IMG/VR virus record: IMGVR_UViG_2778261350_000008
Location: 1 to 12,505 of that record
Strand: one strand, 5' to 3'
DNA from: a virus
Taxonomy: Duplodnaviria; Heunggongvirae; Uroviricota; Caudoviricetes
DNA length: 12,505 nucleotides
The notes below the pieces were generated by a model. It searched no databases. It was given only the letters and a program-made list of their open reading frames with translations, and was not told the origin of the DNA. Both the position numbers and the translations under genes were made by a program. Positions within the stretch are counted from its first letter, which is position 1. The number at the start of each line of letters is the position of its first letter. Shown in pieces: positions 274 through 11,816 of the stretch.

Positions 274-599
274 AGACCTTCCGCTGGAAAGTGAAACCCG
301 GTATGGATGCGGCTTCGGCTCCTTCCGTCAGGGAAGTGCGCTTTGGTGATGGTTACTCCCAGCGCTCGCCTGCCGGGCTGAATGCCGACCTGAAAACGTA
401 CAGCGTGACGCTCTCTGTCTCACGCGAGGAGGCCACGGCGCTGGAGTCGTTTCTGGCTGAACACGGGGGCTGGAAGGCCTTTCTGTGGACGCCGCCTTAT
501 GGCTACCGGCAGATAAAGGTGACCTGCGCAAAGTGGACAGCGCGGGTCAGCATGCTTCGTGTTGAGTTCAGCGCAGAGTTTAAACAGGTGGTGAACTGA
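270..599 (+). CDS. M: Minor tail protein M
   Basis: 109 aa, the same length as lambda gpM and near-identical as recalled (MKTFRWKVKPGMD...LRVEFSAEFKQVVN). Position H-M-L is conserved and the gene is overlap-coupled on both sides. Confidence 0.9.
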   Translation: MKTFRWKVKPGMDAASAPSVREVRFGDGYSQRSPAGLNADLKTYSVTLSVSREEATALESFLAEHGGWKAFLWTPPYGYRQIKVTCAKWTARVSMLRVEFSAEFKQVVN

Positions 600-1297
600 T
601 GCAGGATATCCGACAGGAAACACTGAATGAATGCACCCGTGCGGAGCAGTCGGCCAGCGTGGTGCTCTGGGAAATCGATCTGACAGAGGTCGGTGGAGAA
701 CGTTATTTTTTCTGTAATGAGCAGAACGAAAAAGGCAAGTCGGTTATCTGGCAGGGGAGAGAGTATCAGGCGTATCCCATTCAGGGGAGTGGTTTTGAAC
801 GGAATGGCAAAGGTGCCAGTACGCGGCCCACGCTGGCAGTCTCTAACCTGTACGGCATGGTCACCGGTATGGTGGAAGATATGCAGAGTCTGGTCGGCGG
901 AACGGTGGTCCGGCGCAAGGTCTACGCCCGTTTTCTGGATGCGGTGAACTTCATCAACGGAAACAGCGACGCCGATCCGGAGCAGGAGGTGATCAGCCGC
1001 TGGCGCATTGAGCAGTGCAGCGAACTGAGCGCGGTGAGCGCCTCTTTTGTACTGGCCACGCCGACGGAAACGGATGGCGCTGTTTTCCCGGGGCGTGTCA
1101 TGCTGGCCAACACCTGCACCTGGACCTATCGCGGTGATGAGTGCGGTTATGATGGTCCGGCTGTCGCGGATGAATATGACCAGCCGACGTCCGATATCAC
1201 GAAGGATAAATGCAGCAAATGCCTGAGTGGCTGTAAGTTTCGCAATAACGTCGGCAACTTTGGCGGCTACCTTTCCATTAACAAACTTTCGCAGTAA
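599..1297 (+). CDS. L: Minor tail protein L
   Basis: 232 aa, the lambda gpL length. The start overlaps the M stop (TGATG). Cys-rich C-terminus (CTWTYRGDECGYDG...CSKCLSGCKF) as in gpL-family proteins. Confidence 0.9.
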   Translation: MQDIRQETLNECTRAEQSASVVLWEIDLTEVGGERYFFCNEQNEKGKSVIWQGREYQAYPIQGSGFERNGKGASTRPTLAVSNLYGMVTGMVEDMQSLVGGTVVRRKVYARFLDAVNFINGNSDADPEQEVISRWRIEQCSELSAVSASFVLATPTETDGAVFPGRVMLANTCTWTYRGDECGYDGPAVADEYDQPTSDITKDKCSKCLSGCKFRNNVGNFGGYLSINKLSQ

Positions 1298-1302
1298 ATC
1301 CC

Positions 1303-2046
1303 ATGACAGAGACAGAATCAGCGATTCTGGCGCACGCCCGGCGATGTGCGCCAGCGGAGTCGTGCGGCTTCGTGGTGAGAACGCCGGAGGGGGAAAGGTA
1401 TCTTCCCTGCGTGAATATCTCCGGTGAGCCGGAGGCGTATTTCCGGATGGCTCCGGAAGACTGGCTGCAGGCAGAGATGCAGGGTGAGATTGTGGCGCTG
1501 GTCCACAGCCATCCCGGTGGACTGCCCTGGCTGAGTGAGGCTGACCGGCGGCTGCAGGTGCAGAGTGATTTGCCGTGGTGGCTGGTCTGCCGGGGGGCGA
1601 TTCACAGGTTCCGCTGTGTGCCGCATCTTACCGGGCGGCGCTTTGAGCACGGGGTGACGGACTGTTACACGCTGTTCCGGGATGCTTACCATCTGGCGGG
1701 AATTGAGATGCCGGATTTTCATCGTGAGGATGACTGGTGGCGTAACGGTCAGAATCTCTATCTGGATAACCTTGAAAGACATGGTTTTTACCGTGTCGCA
1801 CTGACAGAGGCACAGCCGGGCGATGTGCTGCTGTGCTGCTTTGGTTCATCGGTGCCGAATCATGCCGCCATTTACTGCGGCGACGGTGAGCTGCTGCACC
1901 ATATTCCTGAACAACTGAGTAAACGAGAGAGGTACACCGACAAATGGCAGCGACGCACACACTCCCTCTGGCGTCACCGGGCATGGCACGCATCTGCCTT
2001 TACGGGGATTTGCAGCGATTTGGCCGCCGCATCGACCTTCGTGTGA
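1303..2046 (+). CDS. K: Tail tip assembly protein K (JAB/MPN-like plus NlpC/P60-like domains)
   Basis: 247-aa ORF starting 5 bp after L. Contains a JAMM-like motif HSHPGGLPWLSEAD (H-x-H-x7-S-x2-D) and an NlpC/P60-like Cys/His pair (GVTDCYTLF ... NHAAIYCGDGELLHH). An internal ATG at 1447 would give the 199-aa form usually annotated for lambda K. The 3' end overlaps I by 103 nt, as in lambda. Confidence 0.85.
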   Translation: MTETESAILAHARRCAPAESCGFVVRTPEGERYLPCVNISGEPEAYFRMAPEDWLQAEMQGEIVALVHSHPGGLPWLSEADRRLQVQSDLPWWLVCRGAIHRFRCVPHLTGRRFEHGVTDCYTLFRDAYHLAGIEMPDFHREDDWWRNGQNLYLDNLERHGFYRVALTEAQPGDVLLCCFGSSVPNHAAIYCGDGELLHHIPEQLSKRERYTDKWQRRTHSLWRHRAWHASAFTGICSDLAAASTFV

Positions 2047-2579
2047 AAACGGGGGCCGAAGCCATCCGGGCGCTGGTCACACAGCTTCCCGCCTTTCGTC
2101 AGAAACTGAACGACGGCTGGTATCAGGTACGCATTTCCGGACAGGATATATCCCATGAAACATTGTTCACACAGATGAATGACACACTGCCTCCGGGCGC
2201 GGTAATACATATTGTCCCTCGCCTGGAGGGGGCAAAAAACGGAGGGGTTTTTCAGGTCGTGGCCGGTGCTGTGCTTGCTGTTGTCGGTTATGCATTAAGC
2301 TGGACAGGCATAGGTGCGGTTATTGGCAACCTTGGTGTGGCCATGATGCTTGGAGGGGTGGCACAGATGCTGGCCCCTAAATCCAGAACTCCCCGTACAC
2401 AGACAACGGATAACGGCAAACAGAATACCTATTTTTCATCACTGGATAACATGATTGCCCAGGGGAATGTTCTGCCCGTTCTGTACGGTGAAATGCGCGT
2501 GGGGTCGCGGGTGGCATCTCAGGAGATCAGCACGGCAGATGAAGGGGATGGTGGCCAGATAGTGGTGATTGGTCGATGA
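1944..2579 (+). CDS. I: Tail assembly protein I
   Basis: 211 aa. N- and C-terminal regions match lambda gpI as recalled (MAATHTLPLASPGMARICLYGDLQRFGRR... ; ...NGKQNTYFSSLDNMIAQGNVLPVLYGEMRVGSRV...). A hydrophobic Gly/Ala-rich middle is present. Starts inside the 3' end of K in another frame. Confidence 0.85.
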   Translation: MAATHTLPLASPGMARICLYGDLQRFGRRIDLRVKTGAEAIRALVTQLPAFRQKLNDGWYQVRISGQDISHETLFTQMNDTLPPGAVIHIVPRLEGAKNGGVFQVVAGAVLAVVGYALSWTGIGAVIGNLGVAMMLGGVAQMLAPKSRTPRTQTTDNGKQNTYFSSLDNMIAQGNVLPVLYGEMRVGSRVASQEISTADEGDGGQIVVIGR

Positions 2580-2639: not shown

Positions 2640-5600
2640 ATGGGTAAAGGTGGTGGTAAGGCGCATACGCCCCGTGAAGCCAGAGATAATCTGAAATCAT
2701 CCCAGATGCTGAGTGTGATTGATGCCATCAGCGAAGGACCGGTTTACGGGCCTGTTGACGGGCTGAAAAGCGTGTTTCTGAACGGCACGCCGGTACTGGA
2801 CCGTGAGGGGAATGCTAACTTTTCCGGTGTCACTGTGGTGTTCCGTGCCGGTGAACAGGAGCAGACACCACCGGAGGGCTTTGAATCCTCCGGTTCAGAA
2901 ACGGTGCTGGGGACGGAAGTGAAATATGACACGCCGATCACCCGGACCATCACGTCGGCAAATATCGATCGTCTGCGCCTGACCTTCGGCGTGCAGGCAC
3001 TGGTGGAAACCACCTCAAAGGGGGACCGTAACCCCTCTTCTGTCCGCCTGCTGGTTCAGATACAGCGTAACGGTGGCTGGGTGACGGAAAAAGACATCAC
3101 CATTAAGGGCAAAACCACGTCCCAGTATCTGGCCTCGGTGGTGGTGGATAACCTGCCGCCGCGACCGTTCAGTATCCGGATGCGCAGGATGACGCCGGAC
3201 AGCACCACAGACCAGTTACAGAACAAAACGCTCTGGTCGTCATACACTGAAATCATCGATGTGAAACAGTGCTACCCGAACACGGCACTGGTCGGCGTAC
3301 AGGTGGACTCGGAGCAGTTCGGCAGTCAGCAGGTGAGCCGCACTTACCATTTTCGGGGGCGTATTCTGCAGGTGCCGTCGAACTATAACCCGCAGACGCG
3401 GCAGTACAGTGGTATCTGGGACGGAACACTTAAACCGGCATACAGCAACAACCCGGCCTGGTGTCTGTGGGACATGCTGACCCATCCGCGCTACGGCATG
3501 GGGAAACGTCTTGGTGCGGCGGATGTGGACAAATGGGCGCTGTATGTCATCGGCCAGTACTGCGACCAGTCAGTGCCGGACGGCTTTGGTGGCACGGAGC
3601 CGCGCATCACCTGTAATGCCTGGCTGACCACACAGCGTAAGGCGTGGGATGTTCTCAGCGATTTCTGCTCGGCGATGCGCTGTATGCCGGTATGGAACGG
3701 GCAGACGCTGACGTTCGTGCAGGACCGGCCGTCGGATAAGGTGTGGACCTATAACCGAAGTAATGTGGTGATGCCGGATGATGGCGCTCCGTTCCGCTAC
3801 AGCTTCAGCGCCCTGAAGGACCGCCATAATGCCGTTGAGGTGAACTGGAGTGACCCGGATAACGGCCAGGAGACGGCGACAGAGCTTGTGGAGGACACAC
3901 AGGCCATTGCCCGTTACGGTCGTAACGTCACGAAGATGGATGCCTTTGGCTGTACCAGCCGGGGGCAGGCACACCGCGCCGGGCTGTGGCTGATTAAAAC
4001 AGAACTGCTGGAAACGCAGACCGTGGATTTCAGCGTCGGCGCAGAAGGGCTTCGCCATGTACCGGGCGATGTTATTGAAATCTGTGATGATGACTATGCG
4101 GGGATCAGCACCGGTGGTCGTGTGCTGGCGGTGAACAGCCAGACCCGGACGCTGACGCTCGACCGTGAAATCACGCTGCCATCCTCCGGCACCACGCTGA
4201 TAAGCCTGGTTGACGGAAGTGGCAATCCGGTCAGCGTGGAGGTTCAGTCCGTCACCGACGGTGTGAAGGTGAAAGTGAGCCGTGTTCCTGACGGCGTTGC
4301 AGAATACAGCGTGTGGGGGCTGAAGCTGCCGACGCTGCGCCAGCGCCTGTTCCGCTGCGTCAGTATCCGTGAGAACGATGACGGCACGTATGCCATCACC
4401 GCCGTGCAGCATGTACCGGAAAAAGAAGCCATCGTGGATAACGGGGCGCACTTTGACGGTGACCAGAGCGGCACGGTGAATGGTGTCACGCCGCCGGCAG
4501 TGCAGCATCTGACCGCCGAAGTCACCGCAGACAGCGGGGAATACCAGGTGCTGGCGCGATGGGACACGCCGAAGGTGGTGAAGGGTGTGAGCTTCCTGCT
4601 TCGTCTGACCGTGGCAGCGGACGACGGCAGTGAGCGGCTGGTCAGCACAGCCAGGACGACGGAAACCACATACCGCTTCAGGCAGCTGGCGCTGGGGCGT
4701 TACACGCTGACGGTACGGGCGGTAAATGCCCAGGGGCAGCAGGGGGATCCGGCGTCGGTATCGTTCCGGATTGCCGCACCGGCAGCGCCGTCACGGATTG
4801 AGCTGACGCCGGGCTATTTTCAGATAACCGCCACGCCGCATCTTGCGGTTTATGATCCGACGGTACAGTTTGAGTTCTGGTTCTCGGAAAAGCGGATTGC
4901 GGATATCAGGCAGGTTGAAACCACAGCCCGCTATCTTGGCACGGCGCTGTACTGGATAGCTGCCAGTATCAATATCAAACCGGGCCATGATTATTACTTT
5001 TATATCCGCAGTGTGAACACCGTTGGCAAATCGGCATTCGTGGAGGCTGTTGGTCAGCCGAGTGATGATCCATCCGGCTATCTGGATTTTTTCAAAGGAG
5101 AGATAGGGAAAACCCATCTGGCTCAGGAGCTGTGGACGCAGATTGATAACAGTCAGCTTGCGCCTGACCTGGCTGAAATCAGGACGTCCATTACGGGTGT
5201 CAGCAATGAAATCACGCAGACTGTCAATAAGACACTGGAAGACCAGAGTGCAGCGATCCAGCAGATACAGAAGGTTCAGGTTGATACCAGTAATGACCTG
5301 AACAGCATGTGGGCTGTGAAGCTGCAACAGATGAAGGACGGACGCCTTTATATCGCGGGTATTGGTGCCGGTATTGGGAACACCCCCGACGGCATGCAGA
5401 GTCAGGTGCTGCTGGCGGCAGACAGGATTGCGATGATTAATCCTGCAAATGGCAACACAAAGCCGATGTTTGTGGGGCAGGGCGATCAGATATTCATGAA
5501 CGACGTGTTCCTGAAATATCTGACGGCTCCCACCATTACCAGTGGTGGTAATCCTCCGGCATTTTCCCTGACACCGGACGGGCGGCTGACGGCGAAAAAT

Positions 5601-6119
5601 GCGGATATCAGCGGTAACGTGAACGCGAACTCCGGGACGCTCAACAATGTCACGATTAATCAGAACTGCCGGATTCTGGGAAAACTGTCAGCCAATCAGA
5701 TTGAAGGCGATCTCGTTAAAACAGTGGGCAAAGCTTTCCCGCGGGACTCCCGTGCACCGGAGCGGTGGCCATCAGGGACCATTACCGTCAGGATTTATGA
5801 CGATCAGCCGTTTGACCGGCAGATTGTTATTCCGGCGGTGGCTTTCCGCGGTGCCAGACATGAGCGGGAGAATAGCGATACTTATTCGTCATGCCGTCTG
5901 ATAGTGAAGAAAAACGGTGCTGAAATTTATAACCGAACGGCTCTGGATAATACGCTGATTTACACGGGTGTTATTGATATGCCTGCAGGCAGTGGCGTAA
6001 TGACACTGGAGTTTTCTGTATCAGCATGGTGGGTAAATGGCTGGTATCCCACAGCGAGTATCAGCGATTTGCTGGTTGTTGTGATGAAGAAATCCACTGC
6101 AGGCATCACGATTAGCTGA
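2640..6119 (+). CDS. J: Tail tip / host-specificity protein J (central tail fibre)
   Basis: 1159-aa ORF (lambda J is 1132 aa) directly after I. GGAG lies 9 nt upstream of the ATG. Position and size are diagnostic; the divergent C-terminal ~250 aa would be the receptor-binding part. Confidence 0.9.
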
Positions 6120-6137
6120 ATTTTATAACCCAGATAC

Positions 6138-6163
6138 GGGCGCCAGAAATGGCGCCTTTTTTA
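6138..6163 (+). terminator. Rho-independent terminator after J
   Basis: Perfect palindromic stem GGCGCC (6139-6144) / GGCGCC (6151-6156) with loop AGAAAT, immediately followed by TTTTTTATT. Confidence 0.6.
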
Positions 6164-6186
6164 TTACAGAAAAGCGAGAGGTAATT

Positions 6187-6786
6187 ATGCGTAAAGTTTG
6201 TGCCGCCATTTTGTCCGCTGCCATCTGTCTGGTCGTATCCGGTGCGCCTGCATGGGCGTCTGAGCAGCAGGCCACACTGAGTGCAGGGTATCTTCATGCC
6301 CGGACGAACGCTCCCGGCAGCGATAATCTGAACGGGATTAACGTGAAATACCGTTATGAGTTTACGGACACGCTGGGGCTGATTACGTCCTTCAGTTATG
6401 CCAGTGCCGAAGATGAGCGAAAAACGCACTACAGCGATACCCGCTGGCATGAAGATTCCGTGCGTAACCGCTGGTTCAGCGTGATGGCGGGGCCGTCTGT
6501 GCGCGTGAATGAATGGTTCAGCGCGTATGCGATGGCGGGTATGGCTTACAGCCGGGTGTCGACTTTTTCCGGGGATTATCTCCGCGTAGCTGACAACACG
6601 GGGAAAACGCACGATGTGCTGACCGGAAGTGCTGACGGTCGCCACAGCAACACGTCTCTGGCGTGGGGCGCTGGCGTGCAGTTTAACCCGACCGAATCCG
6701 TGGCCATTGATGTCGCTTATGAAGGTTCCGGCAGTGGCGACTGGCGTACTGACGGTTTCATCGTGGGTGTTGGTTATAAATTCTGA
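6187..6786 (+). CDS. lom: Lom / Ail / PagC-family outer-membrane beta-barrel protein (lysogenic-conversion type)
   Basis: 199 aa. N-terminal signal peptide MRKVCAAILSAAICLVVSGAPAWA. The C-terminus ...VDVAYEGSGSGDWRTDGFIVGVGYKF matches the lambda Lom C-terminus as recalled. GAGAGG RBS; lambda-like position after J. Confidence 0.85.
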   Translation: MRKVCAAILSAAICLVVSGAPAWASEQQATLSAGYLHARTNAPGSDNLNGINVKYRYEFTDTLGLITSFSYASAEDERKTHYSDTRWHEDSVRNRWFSVMAGPSVRVNEWFSAYAMAGMAYSRVSTFSGDYLRVADNTGKTHDVLTGSADGRHSNTSLAWGAGVQFNPTESVAIDVAYEGSGSGDWRTDGFIVGVGYKF

Positions 6787-6808
6787 TTGTTAACACAGCT
6801 TTACGACA

Positions 6809-6835
6809 GCCCGCCGGTTCAGGCGGGCTTTTTTG
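6809..6835 (+). terminator. Rho-independent terminator after lom
   Basis: Stem GCCCGCC (6809-6815) / GGCGGGC (6822-6828), loop GGTTCA, followed by TTTTTTG. Confidence 0.6.
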
Positions 6836-6845
6836 TGGGGTGAAT

Positions 6846-9200
6846 ATGGCAGTAAAGATTTCAGGTGTACTGAAAGATGGTGCAGGTAAGCCGGTACAAA
6901 ACTGCACTATTCAACTGAAAGCCAGACGTAACAGCACCACGGTGGTGGTGAACACGGTGGCCTCAGAAAATCCGGATGAAGCAGGTCGTTACAGCATGGA
7001 TGTTGAGTACGGTCAGTACAGCGTCAGTCTGTTGGTGGAGGGGTTCCCGCCGTCACATGCCGGGACCATCACCGTCTATGAAGATTCCCGACCCGGTACG
7101 CTGAATGATTTTCTCGGTGCCATGACGGAGGATGATGCCCGTCCGGAGGCACTGCGGCGTTTTGAACTGATGGTGGAAGAAGCGGCACGTAACGCTGAAG
7201 CCGCCTCTAAGAGCGCAGCGGCGGCAAAGAAATCCGAAACTGCAGCGGCATCATCGAAGAACGCGGCGAAAACCTCAGAAACGAATGCAGCTAACAGCGC
7301 ACAGGCGGCAGCGACCTCACAGACTGCATCAGCAAACTCCGCGACAGCAGCCAAAAAATCAGAAACCAACGCGAAAAACAGCGAGACAGCCGCAAAGACG
7401 AGTGAAACTAACGCAAAGTCCAGCCAGACGGCAGCGAAGACCAGCGAAACGAATGCCAAAGCCAGTGAAACTGCGGCGAAAAGCAGTCAGGATGCAGCAG
7501 CCGAAAGCGAGAGTGCTGCAGCCGGTTCTGCGACTTCAGCAGCTGGATCAGCAACTGCTGCGGCTAACAGCCAGAAAGCCGCGAAGACGAGCGAAACTAA
7601 CGCAAAGTCCAGCCAGACGGCAGCGAAGACCAGCGAAACGAATGCCAAAGCCAGCGAAACTGCGGCGAAAAACAGTCAGGATGCAGCAGCCCAAAGCGAG
7701 AGTGCCGCAGCTGGTTCTGCAACAGCGGCAGCTAATAGCCAAAAAGCTGCAAAAACCAGTGAAACTAACGCAAAGACGAGTGAAACAAAAGCAGCAGCCA
7801 GCGAGACAGAAGCAACGTCAGCCGCAACAAGAGCAGAGAATGCAGCCCGGATTGCAGAAGATGCCGCTGATCCTGCTTCTGTCCCTCCGCTTCCTGATAT
7901 CTGGCTACCCTTGAATGATTCTCTGGAAGCGATAACAGGGTATGCCCCGGGCTATAAAACAATAACCATCGGCAGTGATGAAATAACAATGCCTGTTAAT
8001 GGCATATGCCAATTTAGCCGGGCTTCATCTGCAACGTATATTGATAAGTCCGGGCATATTACCGTGGCAGGGAATAACGTTCCTCGTTTTGAAAAATATG
8101 GTTTGCTGATAGAGAATCAGCGAACAAACATGTTCGTAAATAGTTTTAATCCTGATGCCTGGAATAAAAGCGGTGGTATATCTGTAACATCATCAACAGA
8201 TGAATTTGAGTTTAAATATGGACGTTTCACGGTAGGAAGCGATATAGCAGGAACGACAACAGGGCGAAATATATGCACAGTTGCTGGTAACAAAGGCATA
8301 GATGTGACTGGCGATGAACAGTACAGTAAAGGTCCGTATGTTACCGCGTCGTTCAGGGTAAGAAGTGATCTCAATGTTCGCGCACGTATCCGTTTTGAAC
8401 GGTATAACTCGGAAGGATACACCTTCCTTTGCGACGCCTATTTGTCATTACAGACCCATGAACTACAAATTACTGGTGGCAATGCCCAGCTATTAACAGC
8501 AAACTTTGAAATCGATCCAGGTAGTGGATGGATATATTTTCAGGCAACACTGAAATGTCTGCCAGAATGGGGAATGGTTGGTACGCAGCTGCAAATTGCA
8601 GCCGACAGAGCAGTGGGGGCTTTTGCAACAGGTGACTGGATAGAAGTAACCACCCCGCAATTCGAGTATGGTGCCTGTGCAACTTCCTTTATCATAACGA
8701 CAACAGAGCCAGCGACTCGTGCATCAGATTTATGTAAATTTCCGCTGATGAAAAATATGTATACCATGCCTTTTACGTTCATGGTGGAAGTCCATAAAAA
8801 CTGGTTTATTTCTCATAATGCTGCACCGCGTGTCATTGATTCAGAAAATCACCAGTCCGGAGGCCCATTTATTATGGGGTTTGGTTCTTCTGGAACTATC
8901 AGTCAGGATGGTTATTCGTATTGCGATATAGGCGGGGCTAACCGGCGTGTATATGAGTCATGCGGAGTAAGAGATCTCGTTATGGGATTCAGGGTTAAGG
9001 CTGACGGCATGACATGCTCATTTGCAAATAAGAATATAAGCACTGAAACCAAAACAGTATGGAAATATATTCGTGAAGCAGCCGTGATTCGTATCGGGGG
9101 GCAAACGACGACAGGATTACGACACCTTAATGGTCATATAAAAAACCTCCGTTTCTGGAACAGAGCATTGTCAGATACGCAGATTAAGGAATACGTATAA
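6846..9200 (+). CDS. stf: Side tail fibre protein, mosaic: lambda Stf-like N-terminus, Ala/Ser/Thr repeat shaft, foreign C-terminal receptor-binding region with a lectin-like (LamG/ConA-type) end
   Basis: N-terminus MAVKISGVLKDGAGKPVQNCTIQLKARRNSTTVVVN...VYEDSRPGTLNDFLGAMTEDDARPEALRRFELMVEE matches lambda Stf as recalled. The ORF track begins at a GTG (6840); the ATG at 6846 gives the lambda-like start. Residues ~120-330 are low-complexity SETNAK-type repeats. From about nt 7880 the DNA is visibly AT-richer, and the protein ends ...LRHLNGHIKNLRFWNRALSDTQIKEYV, which resembles the terminal strand motif of LamG-like jelly-roll domains. Confidence 0.8.
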   Translation: MAVKISGVLKDGAGKPVQNCTIQLKARRNSTTVVVNTVASENPDEAGRYSMDVEYGQYSVSLLVEGFPPSHAGTITVYEDSRPGTLNDFLGAMTEDDARPEALRRFELMVEEAARNAEAASKSAAAAKKSETAAASSKNAAKTSETNAANSAQAAATSQTASANSATAAKKSETNAKNSETAAKTSETNAKSSQTAAKTSETNAKASETAAKSSQDAAAESESAAAGSATSAAGSATAAANSQKAAKTSETNAKSSQTAAKTSETNAKASETAAKNSQDAAAQSESAAAGSATAAANSQKAAKTSETNAKTSETKAAASETEATSAATRAENAARIAEDAADPASVPPLPDIWLPLNDSLEAITGYAPGYKTITIGSDEITMPVNGICQFSRASSATYIDKSGHITVAGNNVPRFEKYGLLIENQRTNMFVNSFNPDAWNKSGGISVTSSTDEFEFKYGRFTVGSDIAGTTTGRNICTVAGNKGIDVTGDEQYSKGPYVTASFRVRSDLNVRARIRFERYNSEGYTFLCDAYLSLQTHELQITGGNAQLLTANFEIDPGSGWIYFQATLKCLPEWGMVGTQLQIAADRAVGAFATGDWIEVTTPQFEYGACATSFIITTTEPATRASDLCKFPLMKNMYTMPFTFMVEVHKNWFISHNAAPRVIDSENHQSGGPFIMGFGSSGTISQDGYSYCDIGGANRRVYESCGVRDLVMGFRVKADGMTCSFANKNISTETKTVWKYIREAAVIRIGGQTTTGLRHLNGHIKNLRFWNRALSDTQIKEYV
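7392..7748. repeat. In-frame tandem duplication inside the stf shaft (two units of about 189 and 168 bp)
   Basis: 7392-7580 and 7581-7748 are near-identical; unit 1 carries an extra 21 bp (7 aa, SAAGSAT). Each encodes AAKTSETNAKSSQTAAKTSETNAKASETAAK(S/N)SQDAAA(E/Q)SESAAAGSAT...AAANSQKA. Shorter, degenerate copies of the same motif flank it from about 7230 to 7800. Confidence 0.7.
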
Positions 9201-9469
9201 TGCGGGATATAACATTACGATTCGATAACAGAGAACAGTTTAACGCAATTGTATATGACAGTGGCCTGTTCAGTCTTGAAGAAGAAAATGGGATTCTTGT
9301 TGATGTTATTGGCGGCATTATTGATTACGAGGAGCCAGAAAACGAAAGATGTACAGGCATTGATCGCGGTGGTTTTTTCGTAAACATGAGGATTGTTGAT
9401 GGCAGTAAAAACATATCTTCTTTAATGCCTTTCATTACGACAGATCAGCATGTAAGGACATGGGCTTAA
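9200..9469 (+). CDS. Hypothetical 89-aa acidic protein, start-coupled to stf (candidate cognate fibre chaperone or accessory protein)
   Basis: Its ATG overlaps the stf stop (TAATG at 9198-9202). AAGGAA lies 8 nt upstream. AT-rich like the stf 3' half. I recognise no homologue. The same frame stays open for 39 codons after its TAA. Confidence 0.45.
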   Translation: MRDITLRFDNREQFNAIVYDSGLFSLEEENGILVDVIGGIIDYEEPENERCTGIDRGGFFVNMRIVDGSKNISSLMPFITTDQHVRTWA

Positions 9470-9593
9470 TGGAGCTTGCTTGTTCAGGTAGCCAGAGAAT
9501 CAGACGACAGAATAACAGCACTGGAAGAAGAAAACGCAGAATTAAGACAAAGATTATCTGCAATTGAGGCGGCGCTTGCGTCTGAATAATATT

Positions 9594-9618
9594 AAGGGGC
9601 CGAGCGCCCCGTTTTATT
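9594..9618 (+). terminator. Terminator-like hairpin ending the stf / small-ORF transcription unit
   Basis: Stem GGGGC (9596-9600) / GCCCC (9606-9610), loop CGAGC, followed by GTTTTATT. Confidence 0.45.
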
Positions 9619-9631
9619 GGGTAGGATGAAA

Positions 9632-9925
9632 ATGGATATAACACCTTTCCTTCATGCACTTTGTGCTGTGGCTGCGCAGGTACTGATTGGCCTTTTTACC
9701 GGAAACTGGGTTTACGGTGCGATAGCTGGTTGTACGTTCTTCATTGCGCGGGAACACACCCAGGCAGAATATTGCTGGATTGAAATGTTCGGGCATGGCA
9801 AGCGAATGAATATGCCGTGGTGGGGCGGTTTTGATCCGCGTGCTTGGGATGTGGCAAGCCTGATGGATTTTGCTGTGCCGGTGGTGGCGTGTCTGCTGGT
9901 CTGGCTGTTGGTTAATCGTGGGTGA
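9632..9925 (+). CDS. Hypothetical small inner-membrane protein with two predicted TM helices (prophage cargo candidate)
   Basis: MDITPFLHALCAVAAQVLIGLFTGNWVYGAIAGCTFFIA...DVASLMDFAVPVVACLLVWLLVNRG: two hydrophobic segments flank a charged, Trp-rich loop (EHTQAEYCWIEMFGHGKRMNMPWWGGFDPRAWD). AGGA lies 6 nt before the ATG at 9632. In-frame alternatives are ATG 9626 and TTG 9617. Codon use looks coding-like. No homologue recognised. Confidence 0.55.
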   Translation: MDITPFLHALCAVAAQVLIGLFTGNWVYGAIAGCTFFIAREHTQAEYCWIEMFGHGKRMNMPWWGGFDPRAWDVASLMDFAVPVVACLLVWLLVNRG

Positions 9926-9935
9926 AAAAAGGTGA

Positions 9936-10057
9936 GCTGTATATGCAACGGAGGAAGAAACCCCGTTGCTGGCGGCATGGAAGAAGTATCGGGTGCTGCT
10001 CAACCGAACTATACATCAGTAGCTCCGGACATTGAGTGGCCTGTACAACCGGAATAA
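9936..10057 (+). pseudogene. tfa: 3' remnant of a lambda-type tail fibre assembly gene (tfa), truncated and frameshifted
   Basis: One frame reads [28 protein letters not shown]. A second frame continues YTSVAPDIEWPVQPE* (ATG-initiated MEEVSGAAQPNYTSVAPDIEWPVQPE at 9977-10057). Together these match the lambda Tfa C-terminus as I recall it (...[36 protein letters not shown]...). No N-terminal portion is present; the segment begins right after the stop of the membrane-protein gene. Confidence 0.6.
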
Positions 10058-10079
10058 ATATCAGGAGGAGTAATTAATC

Positions 10080-11215
10080 GTGTCGACTCTGATTTCCGGC
10101 GTATTAAAAGATGGTGCAGGTATACCGCTGGCTGCCAGATTATCCTGAAATCCCGTGTAAACACCTCAGATGTGGTGATGTCTGTTGTTGCGCATATTGT
10201 AACCGGGCAAAACGGGGAATATGCGTTTGAGGCCCGGACGGGGAAGTACAGCGTTTATCTGAAGACTGACTGGCGTAATGAGTTTCAGGTTGGTGTTATT
10301 TCTGTTTATGAGGACTCACAACCGGGCACACTGAACGACTTCCTGATAGCAGTGAGTGATGCTGATTTGAAGCCGGACGTTCTGCGGCGGTTCGATGAGC
10401 TGGCGAGGCGTGTCCATGAAGACGCGAACAGCGCAGAACAGTTTGCCGGAGATGCCCGTCGTGCTGTGGATGAACTGGGCGGTAAGGTTCAGGACGATAT
10501 TCGTGACCGTACACCGGACCGTCTGGCTCTGCCCGGTGCTTACGGCTTCGGCGGAATATTCAGCCGCTCGGAAGCTCTGTCGTTTCAGGGGGTATCTGAT
10601 TTTGGTGCGTGGCTACAGAAAGCCACGCCGGGGCGTTATCCGGTCACTGTTGCGGATTCTTCTGCATTGCTGTTGGGCACCACGAAATTTAACGGCAACA
10701 TTGATGTGCTGTGGTCACCCTTTGATAACGACGGGTCGGACACAGCGCACAAATTCAAAACGCTGTTGTGTTACAACGAGCCACGTGCCGGAGAGCACGG
10801 GCTACACCTGCTCCAGTACTGGTACGAGGGCGACAACCTGCGGGTTGCGGGCAGTATGATAGTCTGCGACGCTCCGTCGCTGGCGACACTGCTGTCAGCA
10901 ACAGCGGGAGCGGACCCGTCAGGGTTCTACCGTTATCCGGCGGTGGGTTCCCTGTTGCTGGCAGCGTACCACGGGGCATCTGCCGGTGCTGGCGGGGTGA
11001 GTATTGCAACAGGCGACGTTGTTCCGGGCTCCTGTCTGGGGCCGGTGAGTATTCCGTGCGCGGTGAACGAAGGCGGCACAACTCCGTCGCCGCTGCGGGC
11101 GTTTGTTGGTGGTGCCGGACAGTACAATTTCCCCGGACGTTACCAGGCGTTATCCGGTGCAAATAATGTCCGTGGAAACAATGGGTTTATCTGTCTGTTT
11201 GTGCGCGTTGAGTAG
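10080..11215 (+). pseudogene. Second tail fibre gene (Stf N-terminal paralogue), disrupted by a 1-nt frameshift near 10131-10133
   Basis: The GTG at 10080 (GGAGGAG upstream) opens a frame reading VSTLISGVLKDGAGIPLAARLS*, which stops at 10146-10148. The -1 frame continues ...CQIILKSRVNTSDVV and joins the 347-aa ORF 10172..11215. The joined product aligns with the stf N-terminus (ISGVLKDGAG ; C-Q/T-I-x-LK ; VYEDSQPGTLNDFL ; LRRF-EL). The C-terminal part is Gly/Ala-rich and GC-rich. Confidence 0.6.
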
Positions 11216-11222
11216 GTGAGAA

Positions 11223-11816
11223 ATGAACGCAGTAAAAGATATTCGCAATCCGGTGCATCTCGGAAACGGCGCGGTTGACTGTGAGGTGCTGTTTGAGGGG
11301 CGCAGCGAGTACGTTGTTTATACGGCTGCGCCGGGCGACGCAGCCCCGACAGGTCAGCGTATCTGGCAGGAACTACAGAGCGGCAAATGGGGCGAAATTG
11401 CCCCGTTCACGGCCACGCCGGAACTGATAGCGGCGGCGAAGGATGCAAAACGTCAGGAAATTGAGGTGTGGCGTACCGAACAGGAAGCGCAGTCGTTCAC
11501 GTTTGAGTGGAACGGTCGAACCTGGAACGCGGGGCCGTCCTCACTGGCCCGGCTCACGCCTGCGATTACGGCGGCGGAATACGCCGGCGAGCAGGCTGTT
11601 ACCTGGAGCGATACAACCAACGAGCCGGTAAACCTGACAGTGCAGGAACTGAAATCGCTGGCCGTCGCACTGGCTCAGGCACTCTCTGAGCGGAACAACG
11701 CGATTTATCGTCGCCAGCGGGAGATGAAGGATACGTTAAACACCCTGGAGAATCTGGCAGAGGTGCAGGCGTTTAAGGTTGGAGAACAATCTATATTGGG
11801 GGTAAGCCGTATTTAG
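11223..11816 (+). CDS. Putative tail fibre assembly / chaperone protein (assigned by position)
   Basis: 197-aa ORF 8 bp after the stf2 stop, with AGGTGAG RBS. Contains a W-N-G-x-(T/A)-W motif ([11 protein letters not shown]) reminiscent of Tfa proteins (lambda Tfa has WNGTAW), but it lacks the lambda-type Tfa C-terminus seen in the remnant at 9936-10057. Confidence 0.5.

Follow-up and report, generated by a model that had tools for sequence, protein, structure and literature searches.

Among the distal tail genes of a lambda-like prophage of E. coli, a single gene, lom, stands between two hairpins, each followed by a T-tract, and these hairpins appear to differ in origin. The upstream one seems to be the generic terminator that follows the tail gene J in this phage group, with or without lom, and the downstream one apparently travels with lom. 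We think it probable that polymerase modified by the antiterminator Q reads through both of them during lytic growth and that unmodified polymerase stops at them in the lysogen.

The distal tail region and the lom gene

In a lambda-like prophage of E. coli, the window (the whole 12.5-kb stretch of DNA that was analysed) covers the distal part of the tail genes, at the far end of the late, Q-dependent operon. The genes below are all on the plus strand, as are the other features that we will refer to:

599-1297, plus strand: L
1303-2046, plus strand: K
1944-2579, plus strand: I
2640-6119, plus strand: J, tail tip attachment and host specificity, the last core tail gene before the terminator
6138-6165, plus strand: post-J predicted intrinsic terminator, with an 8-bp GC-rich stem, a GAAA loop, and the tract TTTTTTATT
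6166-6834, plus strand: lom cassette, a presence/absence unit of ribosome-binding site (RBS), lom, and its own terminator (from the comparison of junctions)
6176-6181, plus strand: Shine-Dalgarno sequence of lom, GAGAGG (from the sequence, its variants, and the matching RBS annotation in phage 434)
6187-6786, plus strand: lom, 199-aa precursor of an eight-stranded outer-membrane beta-barrel of the Ail/Lom family (from Pfam and PDB matches)
6808-6834, plus strand: lom-distal predicted intrinsic terminator, with an 8-bp stem (7 GC pairs) and T6, adjoining the RBS of stf
6846-9200, plus strand: stf, side tail fibre (from Pfam phage_tail_N, the PGAP start, and the translation)
9200-9469, plus strand: short open reading frame
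10172-11215, plus strand: second stf-like gene, N-terminally truncated
11223-11816, plus strand: tfa-like gene (DUF4376)

J matches the Pfam families Ig_J, FNIII-A_GpJ, Phage-tail_3, and Ig_GpJ_C, among others, as well as the structure of lambda J (PDB 8iyk, E = 0), and PGAP labels it 'gpJ' in an identical genome. The RBS of stf is GGGG at 6837-6840, and its ATG (6846) is 11 nt past the T-tract of the lom-distal hairpin. Two minus-strand open reading frames over lom (6112-6645, 177 aa, and 6123-6275) had no Pfam match and were taken as spurious. A scan of the whole window with Rfam found no family.

The region around lom is common. Six complete E. coli genomes (KC-Dl-1, A24, and several FDAARGOS strains among them) match positions 5900-7100 with 100% identity, and DNA related to this stretch occurs in 4900 of 5426 complete E. 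coli genomes and in 239 phage records. In strain A24, the 100% identical prophage is complete and includes repressor/cro-like genes. It encodes, on one strand, a Q-family antiterminator, holin, lysozyme, Rz, terminase, portal, capsid, and tail genes, J, and lom; its iss (bor-like) gene is on the strand opposite to the late genes. In this arrangement lom is co-directional with the late genes, contiguous with them, and downstream of the Q gene, which is the position of a member of a Q-antiterminated lambdoid late operon.

The protein itself is what the first-pass annotation took it to be, an outer-membrane protein of the Ail/PagC family. It matches PF06316 (Ail_Lom) with 405.5 bits (E = 4.8e-122; the curated cut-off is 23 bits) over residues 1-199 of the 199-position profile. 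It also matches the structures of lambda Lom (PDB 9wso_C, 2.8e-48) and of OmpX and Ail (about 1e-18). Read directly from the sequence, the N-terminus (MRKVCAAILSAAICLVVSGAPAWA/SEQQ) looks like a signal peptide and the C-terminus (...GYKF) ends in an aromatic residue. The window's Lom is 43% identical to that of lambda, 88% identical to that of phage 434, and 91-96% identical to many copies in IMG/VR prophages. About 90% of complete E. coli genomes carry its allele family. The leader before the gene (GCAGAAAAGCGAGAGGTAATT) is essentially invariant across relatives. Lom is not needed for plaque formation (PMC10695390). One Lom cluster (at least 85% identity) was paired with five clusters of J C-termini, in a biased sample where 75 of the 84 loci have one J type. 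When lom alleles were compared with the receptor-binding domain of J, the lambda-type pair was represented by lambda alone.

Hairpins on either side of lom

The upstream hairpin (6138-6157) pairs GGGCGCCA with TGGCGCCT in a stem of 8 pairs, 6 of them GC, around the GAAA loop, and the T-tract that follows ends at 6165. It begins 19 nt past the stop codon of J (6117-6119) and is separated from the ATG of lom (6187) by 21 nt. The predicted fold has an energy of −15.7 kcal/mol (z-score −4.2), and none of 200 dinucleotide shuffles folds as well. Among 11 distinct variants, from loci with and without lom, all 88 of the 88 pair-cells are standard pairs. These include two compensatory pairs (G-C to A-U with a G-U intermediate, and C-G to U-A), and a wobble is seen at a third pair of the stem. 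The covariation score was reached by none of 500 shuffles, and slid controls were only 35-64% paired. A T-tract of at least 5 is kept in nearly all of the variants and the plus-strand polarity is strict. In one variant the loop is exactly inverted (AGAAAT to ATTTCT) inside a palindromic GGCGCC stem. This conservation and covariation indicate that the post-J structure is under selection. Lambda and a Citrobacter prophage have other hairpins at this position, and the element is marked 'terminator' in the records of phages 21 and 434.

The downstream hairpin (6808-6829) pairs AGCCCGCC with GGCGGGCT, also 8 pairs, around a 6-nt loop (GGTTCA), with the T-run at 6829-6834. It begins 22 nt past the stop codon of lom, and the ATG of stf follows after 11 nt. 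Its predicted energy is −21.6 kcal/mol (z-score −4.5), and again none of 200 dinucleotide shuffles folds as well. Across 9 variants 98.6% of positions are paired, and substitutions in the stem stay G-U wobbles except in one sequence. There are no compensatory double changes among these 9 variants because the sequences are too similar. Lambda also has a lom-distal terminator, and the phage 434 record marks this element 'terminator'. In both hairpins the changes in the stem are compatible with RNA pairing (G-U intermediates and wobbles), as would be expected if selection acts on the RNA and not on a DNA cruciform.

Of 19 terminator-like sites in the window, these two hairpins rank highest. Under stricter rules, which call for a perfect stem of 7 bp or more (5 or more of them GC pairs), a loop of 3-8, and a T6 that follows directly, they are the only sites on either strand of the 12.5 kb, and 300 dinucleotide shuffles gave none. 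Neither can be read as a terminator on the minus strand. Both have the anatomy of intrinsic terminators (a GC-rich stem-loop with a U-tract), and both have the expected position, as they are intergenic, co-oriented with the genes, and downstream of stop codons. They are conserved across hundreds of phages, and structure is kept through changes in sequence: the slot before stf holds three unrelated hairpin sequences. We infer that both are genuine Rho-independent terminators, at which transcription would actually end. The first-pass annotation had placed terminators at 6138-6163 and 6809-6835, so its placement was accurate to within a few nucleotides (6138-6165 and 6808-6834).

The origin of each hairpin becomes apparent from phages that do not have lom. 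These include PhiR57_1, 1W, phage 21, ev017, 4A7, and a set of 'Lambda_ev' isolates. In these phages the last codons of J are almost unchanged, the identical hairpin follows (GGGCGCCAGAAATGGCGCC-TTTTTTATT), and then at once comes TGTGGAGTGAATATG, which is the RBS and start of stf. At least 1226 of 5426 E. coli genomes have this junction at full length, it is also found in 29 phage records, and in the curated record of phage 21 it carries the annotations 'terminator' and 'ribosome_binding_site'. Since the same hairpin follows J in phages without lom, we assign the upstream terminator to J, as the generic post-J element, and not to a lom unit. The view of lom as an insulated unit, which had been put forward from the letters of the DNA, thus survives in part: lom is a single gene between two terminators, but the upstream one belongs to J.

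Comparing the window with two lom-less junctions places the breakpoints of the cassette (about 669 bp) at the ends of the two T-tracts, with an ambiguity of about 1 nt. As the post-J hairpin is generic and the second terminator appears to travel with lom, the mobile unit would be RBS, lom, and terminator. Since this unit ends at T-tracts, its presence regenerates the same order of terminator, RBS, and stf that exists without lom. The direction of the change could be either insertion of lom or its deletion by slippage between the two CTTTTTT tracts. In a third arrangement, found in about 1/4 of the IMG/VR loci, lom is followed by about 100 extra nt and an unrelated terminator (AGCCCGTGGC...GCTGCGGGCT-T7), which is directly before stf. 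As all three arrangements (with lom, without lom, and this third one) put a terminator in front of stf, stf is always preceded by a terminator.

Transcription of lom and stf

A promoter for lom had been proposed at 6160-6190, and promoter prediction does not bear this out. The space from the T-tract to the ATG is only 21 nt, most of which is the Shine-Dalgarno region and the invariant leader. A scan for sigma-70 sites found nothing on the plus strand near lom, with no match of 9/12 or better in the 240 nt before the gene (in the whole window there were 8 sites, versus 9.2 expected by chance). A relaxed scan (at least 7/12 matches, spacers of 15-19) of the 240 nt upstream of lom gave no convincing promoter: the matches were about 7-9/12 and were without the key −10 positions. 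These scans cover the sigma-70 consensus; weak, activator-dependent, factor-dependent, or alternative-sigma promoters are outside their reach. The best relaxed match, TTGATA-16-CGTAAT at 5974-6001, is within J and upstream of the terminator. For the nearest candidate, CAGGCA-18-TATAAC at 6100-6129 (with TATAAC at 6124-6129), transcription would start right at the hairpin. We set both of these aside. Where the window has TATTAC, the majority variant is TATTGC. In lambda, an 8/12 match (TCGTCC-17-TATAAA) overlaps the upstream hairpin. The curated record of phage 434 gives the order terminator, RBS, lom, terminator, RBS, stf, and annotates no promoter. So, given the 21-nt space and the lack of a convincing sigma-70-like site within 240 nt, an autonomous promoter for lom is not visible in the sequence. 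The base composition of lom gives no sign of foreign origin either, as its GC content (0.53-0.60) does not stand out from that of the flanking J and stf (0.46-0.58). Among papers mentioning a 'lom promoter' or 'lom transcript', we found only PMC2147009, which states that little is known about the promoter.

Published accounts of lom expression vary. The gene has been described as a lysogen-expressed 'moron' (PMC3594210; PMC7067206) and as expressed in lysogens (PMC1151598; PMC7067206). An array study did not detect it in lysogens (PMC2147009). According to two reports, expression of lambda lom is weak in lysogens and increases strongly or dramatically late in infection (PMC9836094 and bioRxiv 10.1101/2025.02.28.640651, citing Liu et al., 2013). 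In Phi24B, where the genomic context is different, lom was expressed equally in lysogens and in induced cultures (PMC3342100), and lomW, the homologue in O157 Sakai, went up on entry into stationary phase without induction (PMC2241611). The constitutive expression in Phi24B and the stationary-phase rise of lomW imply that some lom genes have real, host-driven promoters. [quoted passage not shown] These reports temper the first-pass view that lom is expressed in the lysogen rather than late. It is widely described as a lysogen moron, but 'rather than late' is too strong given the late rise.

We favor the explanation that the two terminators have separate origins and that Q decides whether they are passed. 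In lytic growth, polymerase that starts at the late promoter and is modified by Q would pass both terminators, so that lom, stf, and tfa would be made as late genes. This is what established lambda Q biology predicts, given the Q gene in the same prophage, and it matches the strong late rise reported for lambda lom. In the lysogen, unmodified polymerase would stop at both hairpins, which would keep stray transcription of the tail genes from reaching lom and stf and would keep any lom transcript from reaching stf. As the cassette has no recognisable sigma-70 promoter, the low expression of lom in lambda lysogens would come from a weak or non-canonical promoter that overlaps the post-J terminator, from a factor-dependent promoter, or from leak-through. 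The same reasoning bears on stf, which had been thought to need read-through or its own promoter on account of lom. With a Q gene further upstream in this prophage, transcription would be expected to reach stf by Q-mediated read-through; but the need for read-through is not a consequence of lom, as a terminator precedes stf without lom too.

Alternatively, lom could be an autonomous moron with its own promoter, transcribed mainly in the repressed prophage as a lysogenic-conversion gene, with both terminators insulating it from the tail operon. The literature offers some encouragement, as lom is listed among the lysogen-expressed genes of lambda and its product is called a moron product, and the behavior of the Phi24B and O157 Sakai genes points the same way. 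Lom is also a presence/absence gene with its own downstream terminator, and the weak site that overlaps lambda's upstream hairpin might be such a promoter. However, the upstream terminator occurs without lom, the cassette contributes just 21 nt before the ATG, and the best plus-strand candidates nearby are weak (7-8/12), lack the key −10 positions, and include a hexamer that is TATTGC in most variants. Furthermore, lom resembles its flanks in GC content and runs in the direction of the late operon, with a strong late rise reported, in contrast to the antisense bor/iss. We therefore consider autonomy to be rather unlikely for this gene.

Another way to read the hairpins is that they mainly stabilise or process RNA 3' ends, or mark boundaries for the recombination of modules, and are not physiologically important stops. 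Homology between phages does tend to break within the final ~70 nt of J and at the hairpins (query start 149-220), phage ev207 matches only the hairpin region, the cassette itself breaks at the ends of the T-tracts, and the variant with the inverted loop records an event at a DNA hairpin. But nearly all variants keep the full terminator signature, with a T-tract of at least 5 and the plus-strand polarity, and the stems change in ways that suit RNA. Such roles are also compatible with termination, and as a replacement for it we judge them quite improbable. That the hairpins are there by chance and have no function hardly deserves credence: weak terminator-like sites are generally frequent (with a loose pattern, 19 were found in the window versus 12.6 expected), but sites of this quality did not arise in any of the 300 shuffles, and both hairpins are intergenic, co-oriented, and conserved in hundreds of phages with compensatory changes. 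Also, curators have annotated both as terminators.

A bolder form of the Q-dependent explanation, which we offer tentatively and hold to be doubtful, is that lom is a promoter-less module running from terminator to terminator, made for expression mainly through Q-antiterminated late transcription and not for lysogenic conversion. It would then serve mainly for self-exclusion late in infection, and the post-J T-tract would be a preferred docking point for cassettes. If so, Lom would keep progeny from adsorbing non-productively to infected cells or to debris, a role that has been suggested for the Lom of lambda (bioRxiv 10.1101/2025.02.28.640651). Accessory cassettes would insert and excise at the post-J T-tract, each with a terminator that restores the order of terminator, RBS, and stf. 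A cassette without a promoter does fit the recent suggestion that Lom works mainly late, as a block to adsorption.

Comparison with known phages and genes

The layout of terminators around lom is already known and is annotated in the phage 434 record. Both lambda and phage 434 (OL657226.1) have the same order of J, lom, and stf, with a hairpin and T-tract at both junctions. In phage 434, both elements are annotated as 'terminator' and the RBSs are annotated as well. In lambda, the hairpins are at 421-436 and 1113-1134 of the stretch that we compared (L001). Its lom-distal terminator and stf RBS are nearly identical to those of the window, but its Lom is only 43% identical, and its upstream hairpin differs in sequence and is far weaker (a stem of 5-6 bp and about −8 kcal/mol). 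Tandem terminators distal to J in lambda were reportedly described by Luk and Szybalski in 1983. The stf gene of lambda PaPa is frameshifted (PMC10695390), whereas the stf reading frame in the window is intact.

The lom-less lambdoids (phage 21, OL657228.1; PhiR57_1; 1W; ev017; 4A7) are near-identical to the window over the last ~70 nt of J, and they have the identical post-J terminator and the same RBS and start of stf. They differ in being without the 669-bp cassette, so that they have one terminator where the window has two.

The concept of morons is said to go back to Juhala and colleagues in 2000. As in morons, lom is an extra gene between conserved late or tail genes that is present in some phages and absent from others, it has a downstream terminator, and its product acts at the envelope. 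Unlike in morons, neither a promoter of its own nor a deviant GC content was seen for lom, and its upstream terminator is that of the recipient operon. So, with presence/absence between collinear genes and a terminator within the indel unit on one side, and no promoter of its own or deviant base composition on the other, the statement that lom works like a moron holds only in part. Morons were reviewed by Cumby, Davidson and Maxwell (2012; PMC3594210); gene 15 of HK97, in the tail operon, is an example.

The bor/iss gene is similar to lom in that it is an accessory gene for an envelope protein in the late region of the same prophage, and the two are classically paired as lysogen-expressed genes. 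However, iss/bor runs against the late operon and therefore needs a promoter of its own, whereas lom is co-directional and can ride on the late transcript. Ail of Yersinia, OmpX of E. coli, and PagC and Rck of Salmonella belong to the same Pfam family and fold class as Lom, but unlike lom they are located on chromosomes or plasmids and have regulated promoters of their own. Chromosomal homologues in Xenorhabdus and Proteus have AT-rich upstream regions and no terminator there.

Lom, its status as a moron, and the flanking terminators are thus textbook knowledge or already annotated for lambda-like phages, and they matter little as a discovery. To what is known of these systems our analysis makes modest additions, which are the generic nature of the post-J terminator, the bounds of the cassette at the T-tracts, the compensatory changes in the upstream stem, and the invariable presence of a terminator before stf. 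This last point is worth knowing for anyone who engineers the junction between J and stf in lambdoid phages, as stf is always directly behind a terminator.

Accessory genes after J

Accessory cargo has a general hotspot in the slot behind J. Some prophages, for example phage PPompW_EH2201 (compared locus L004) and P-EibA (search match H58), carry a lom that is cut short after ~170-490 nt, and the genes downstream of the truncated lom in these prophages are type III effector genes (espO, nleG) or eibA. A lom with 66% identity is found in Citrobacter meridianamericanus (locus L092). The 5' side of this gene (1430-1500 of the compared stretch) keeps a hairpin and T7, with a different stem sequence. 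On its 3' side (2095-2150) there is a GC hairpin whose T-tract is poor (ATCTTATGG), and therefore the distal terminator is not universal. A lambda-type lom, 43% identical to ours, is also present in genome contigs whose assemblies are labelled Neobacillus, Kitasatospora, Pseudomonas, Shewanella, Bradyrhizobium, Desulfosporosinus, and others (loci L095-L108). These copies are mutually identical, and the contigs that bear them are often of very low coverage or ~48.5 kb in length. The lambda-type lom in these assemblies is almost certainly phage lambda DNA, from contamination or a spike-in.

The post-J hairpin (6138-6157) has a natural variant in which the loop is replaced by its exact reverse complement (AGAAAT to ATTTCT), and the arms are the palindrome GGCGCC.

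Inverted-loop variant of the post-J hairpin: loci L008, L017, L020, L025, and L035

The reversal of the loop suggests an event at the level of DNA, either hairpin-mediated inversion or a template switch.

As for the protein, PDB entry 9wso (2026 copy of the PDB) is a solved structure that contains, as chain C, the 206-aa protein of lambda named "Outer membrane protein lom." This structure may be relevant to the block of lambda adsorption by Lom; a PDB search with gene J reported no J chains under this entry.

The stf repeats and a second tail-fibre module

Within stf, the region at 7200-7820 has an extreme skew of A over T (maximum 0.67) and contains tandem repeats with units of 21, 42, and 189 nt. 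These encode a long heptad-like repeat that is rich in Ala, Ser, Thr, and Lys and includes AAKTSETNAKSSQTAAKTSETNAKASETAAK. In the window, stf is an intact ORF of 785 codons; on the identical genome of strain A24, PGAP annotates two "partial pseudogenes." The features that follow stf are:

9200-9469, small ORF directly after stf
9596-9610, bidirectional hairpin with a 5-bp GC stem
10172-11215, second stf-like gene, whose N-terminal domain begins at Pfam profile position 34
Within 9470-11816, after the second stf-like gene, tfa-like gene (DUF4376)

The ~700 bp beyond the small ORF, where the hairpin lies, hold only fragments of tail-fibre and assembly genes (pseudogenes according to PGAP). Overall, 9470-11816 looks like a duplicate tail-fibre module, either stacked or partly decayed.

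Genes on the opposite strand

Window 6112-6645, minus strand, 177-aa ORF with a GTG start, antisense to lom
L128 18594-18878 (in the prophage of strain A24, beyond the window), antisense to the late operon, iss (homologue of bor)

In the A24 prophage, iss lies between the lysis and terminase genes. Its orientation contrasts with that of lom, which in the same prophage is co-directional with the late operon. The 177-aa ORF had no match in Pfam and is probably spurious, and in this it can be likened to orf206b of lambda, which is antisense to stf.
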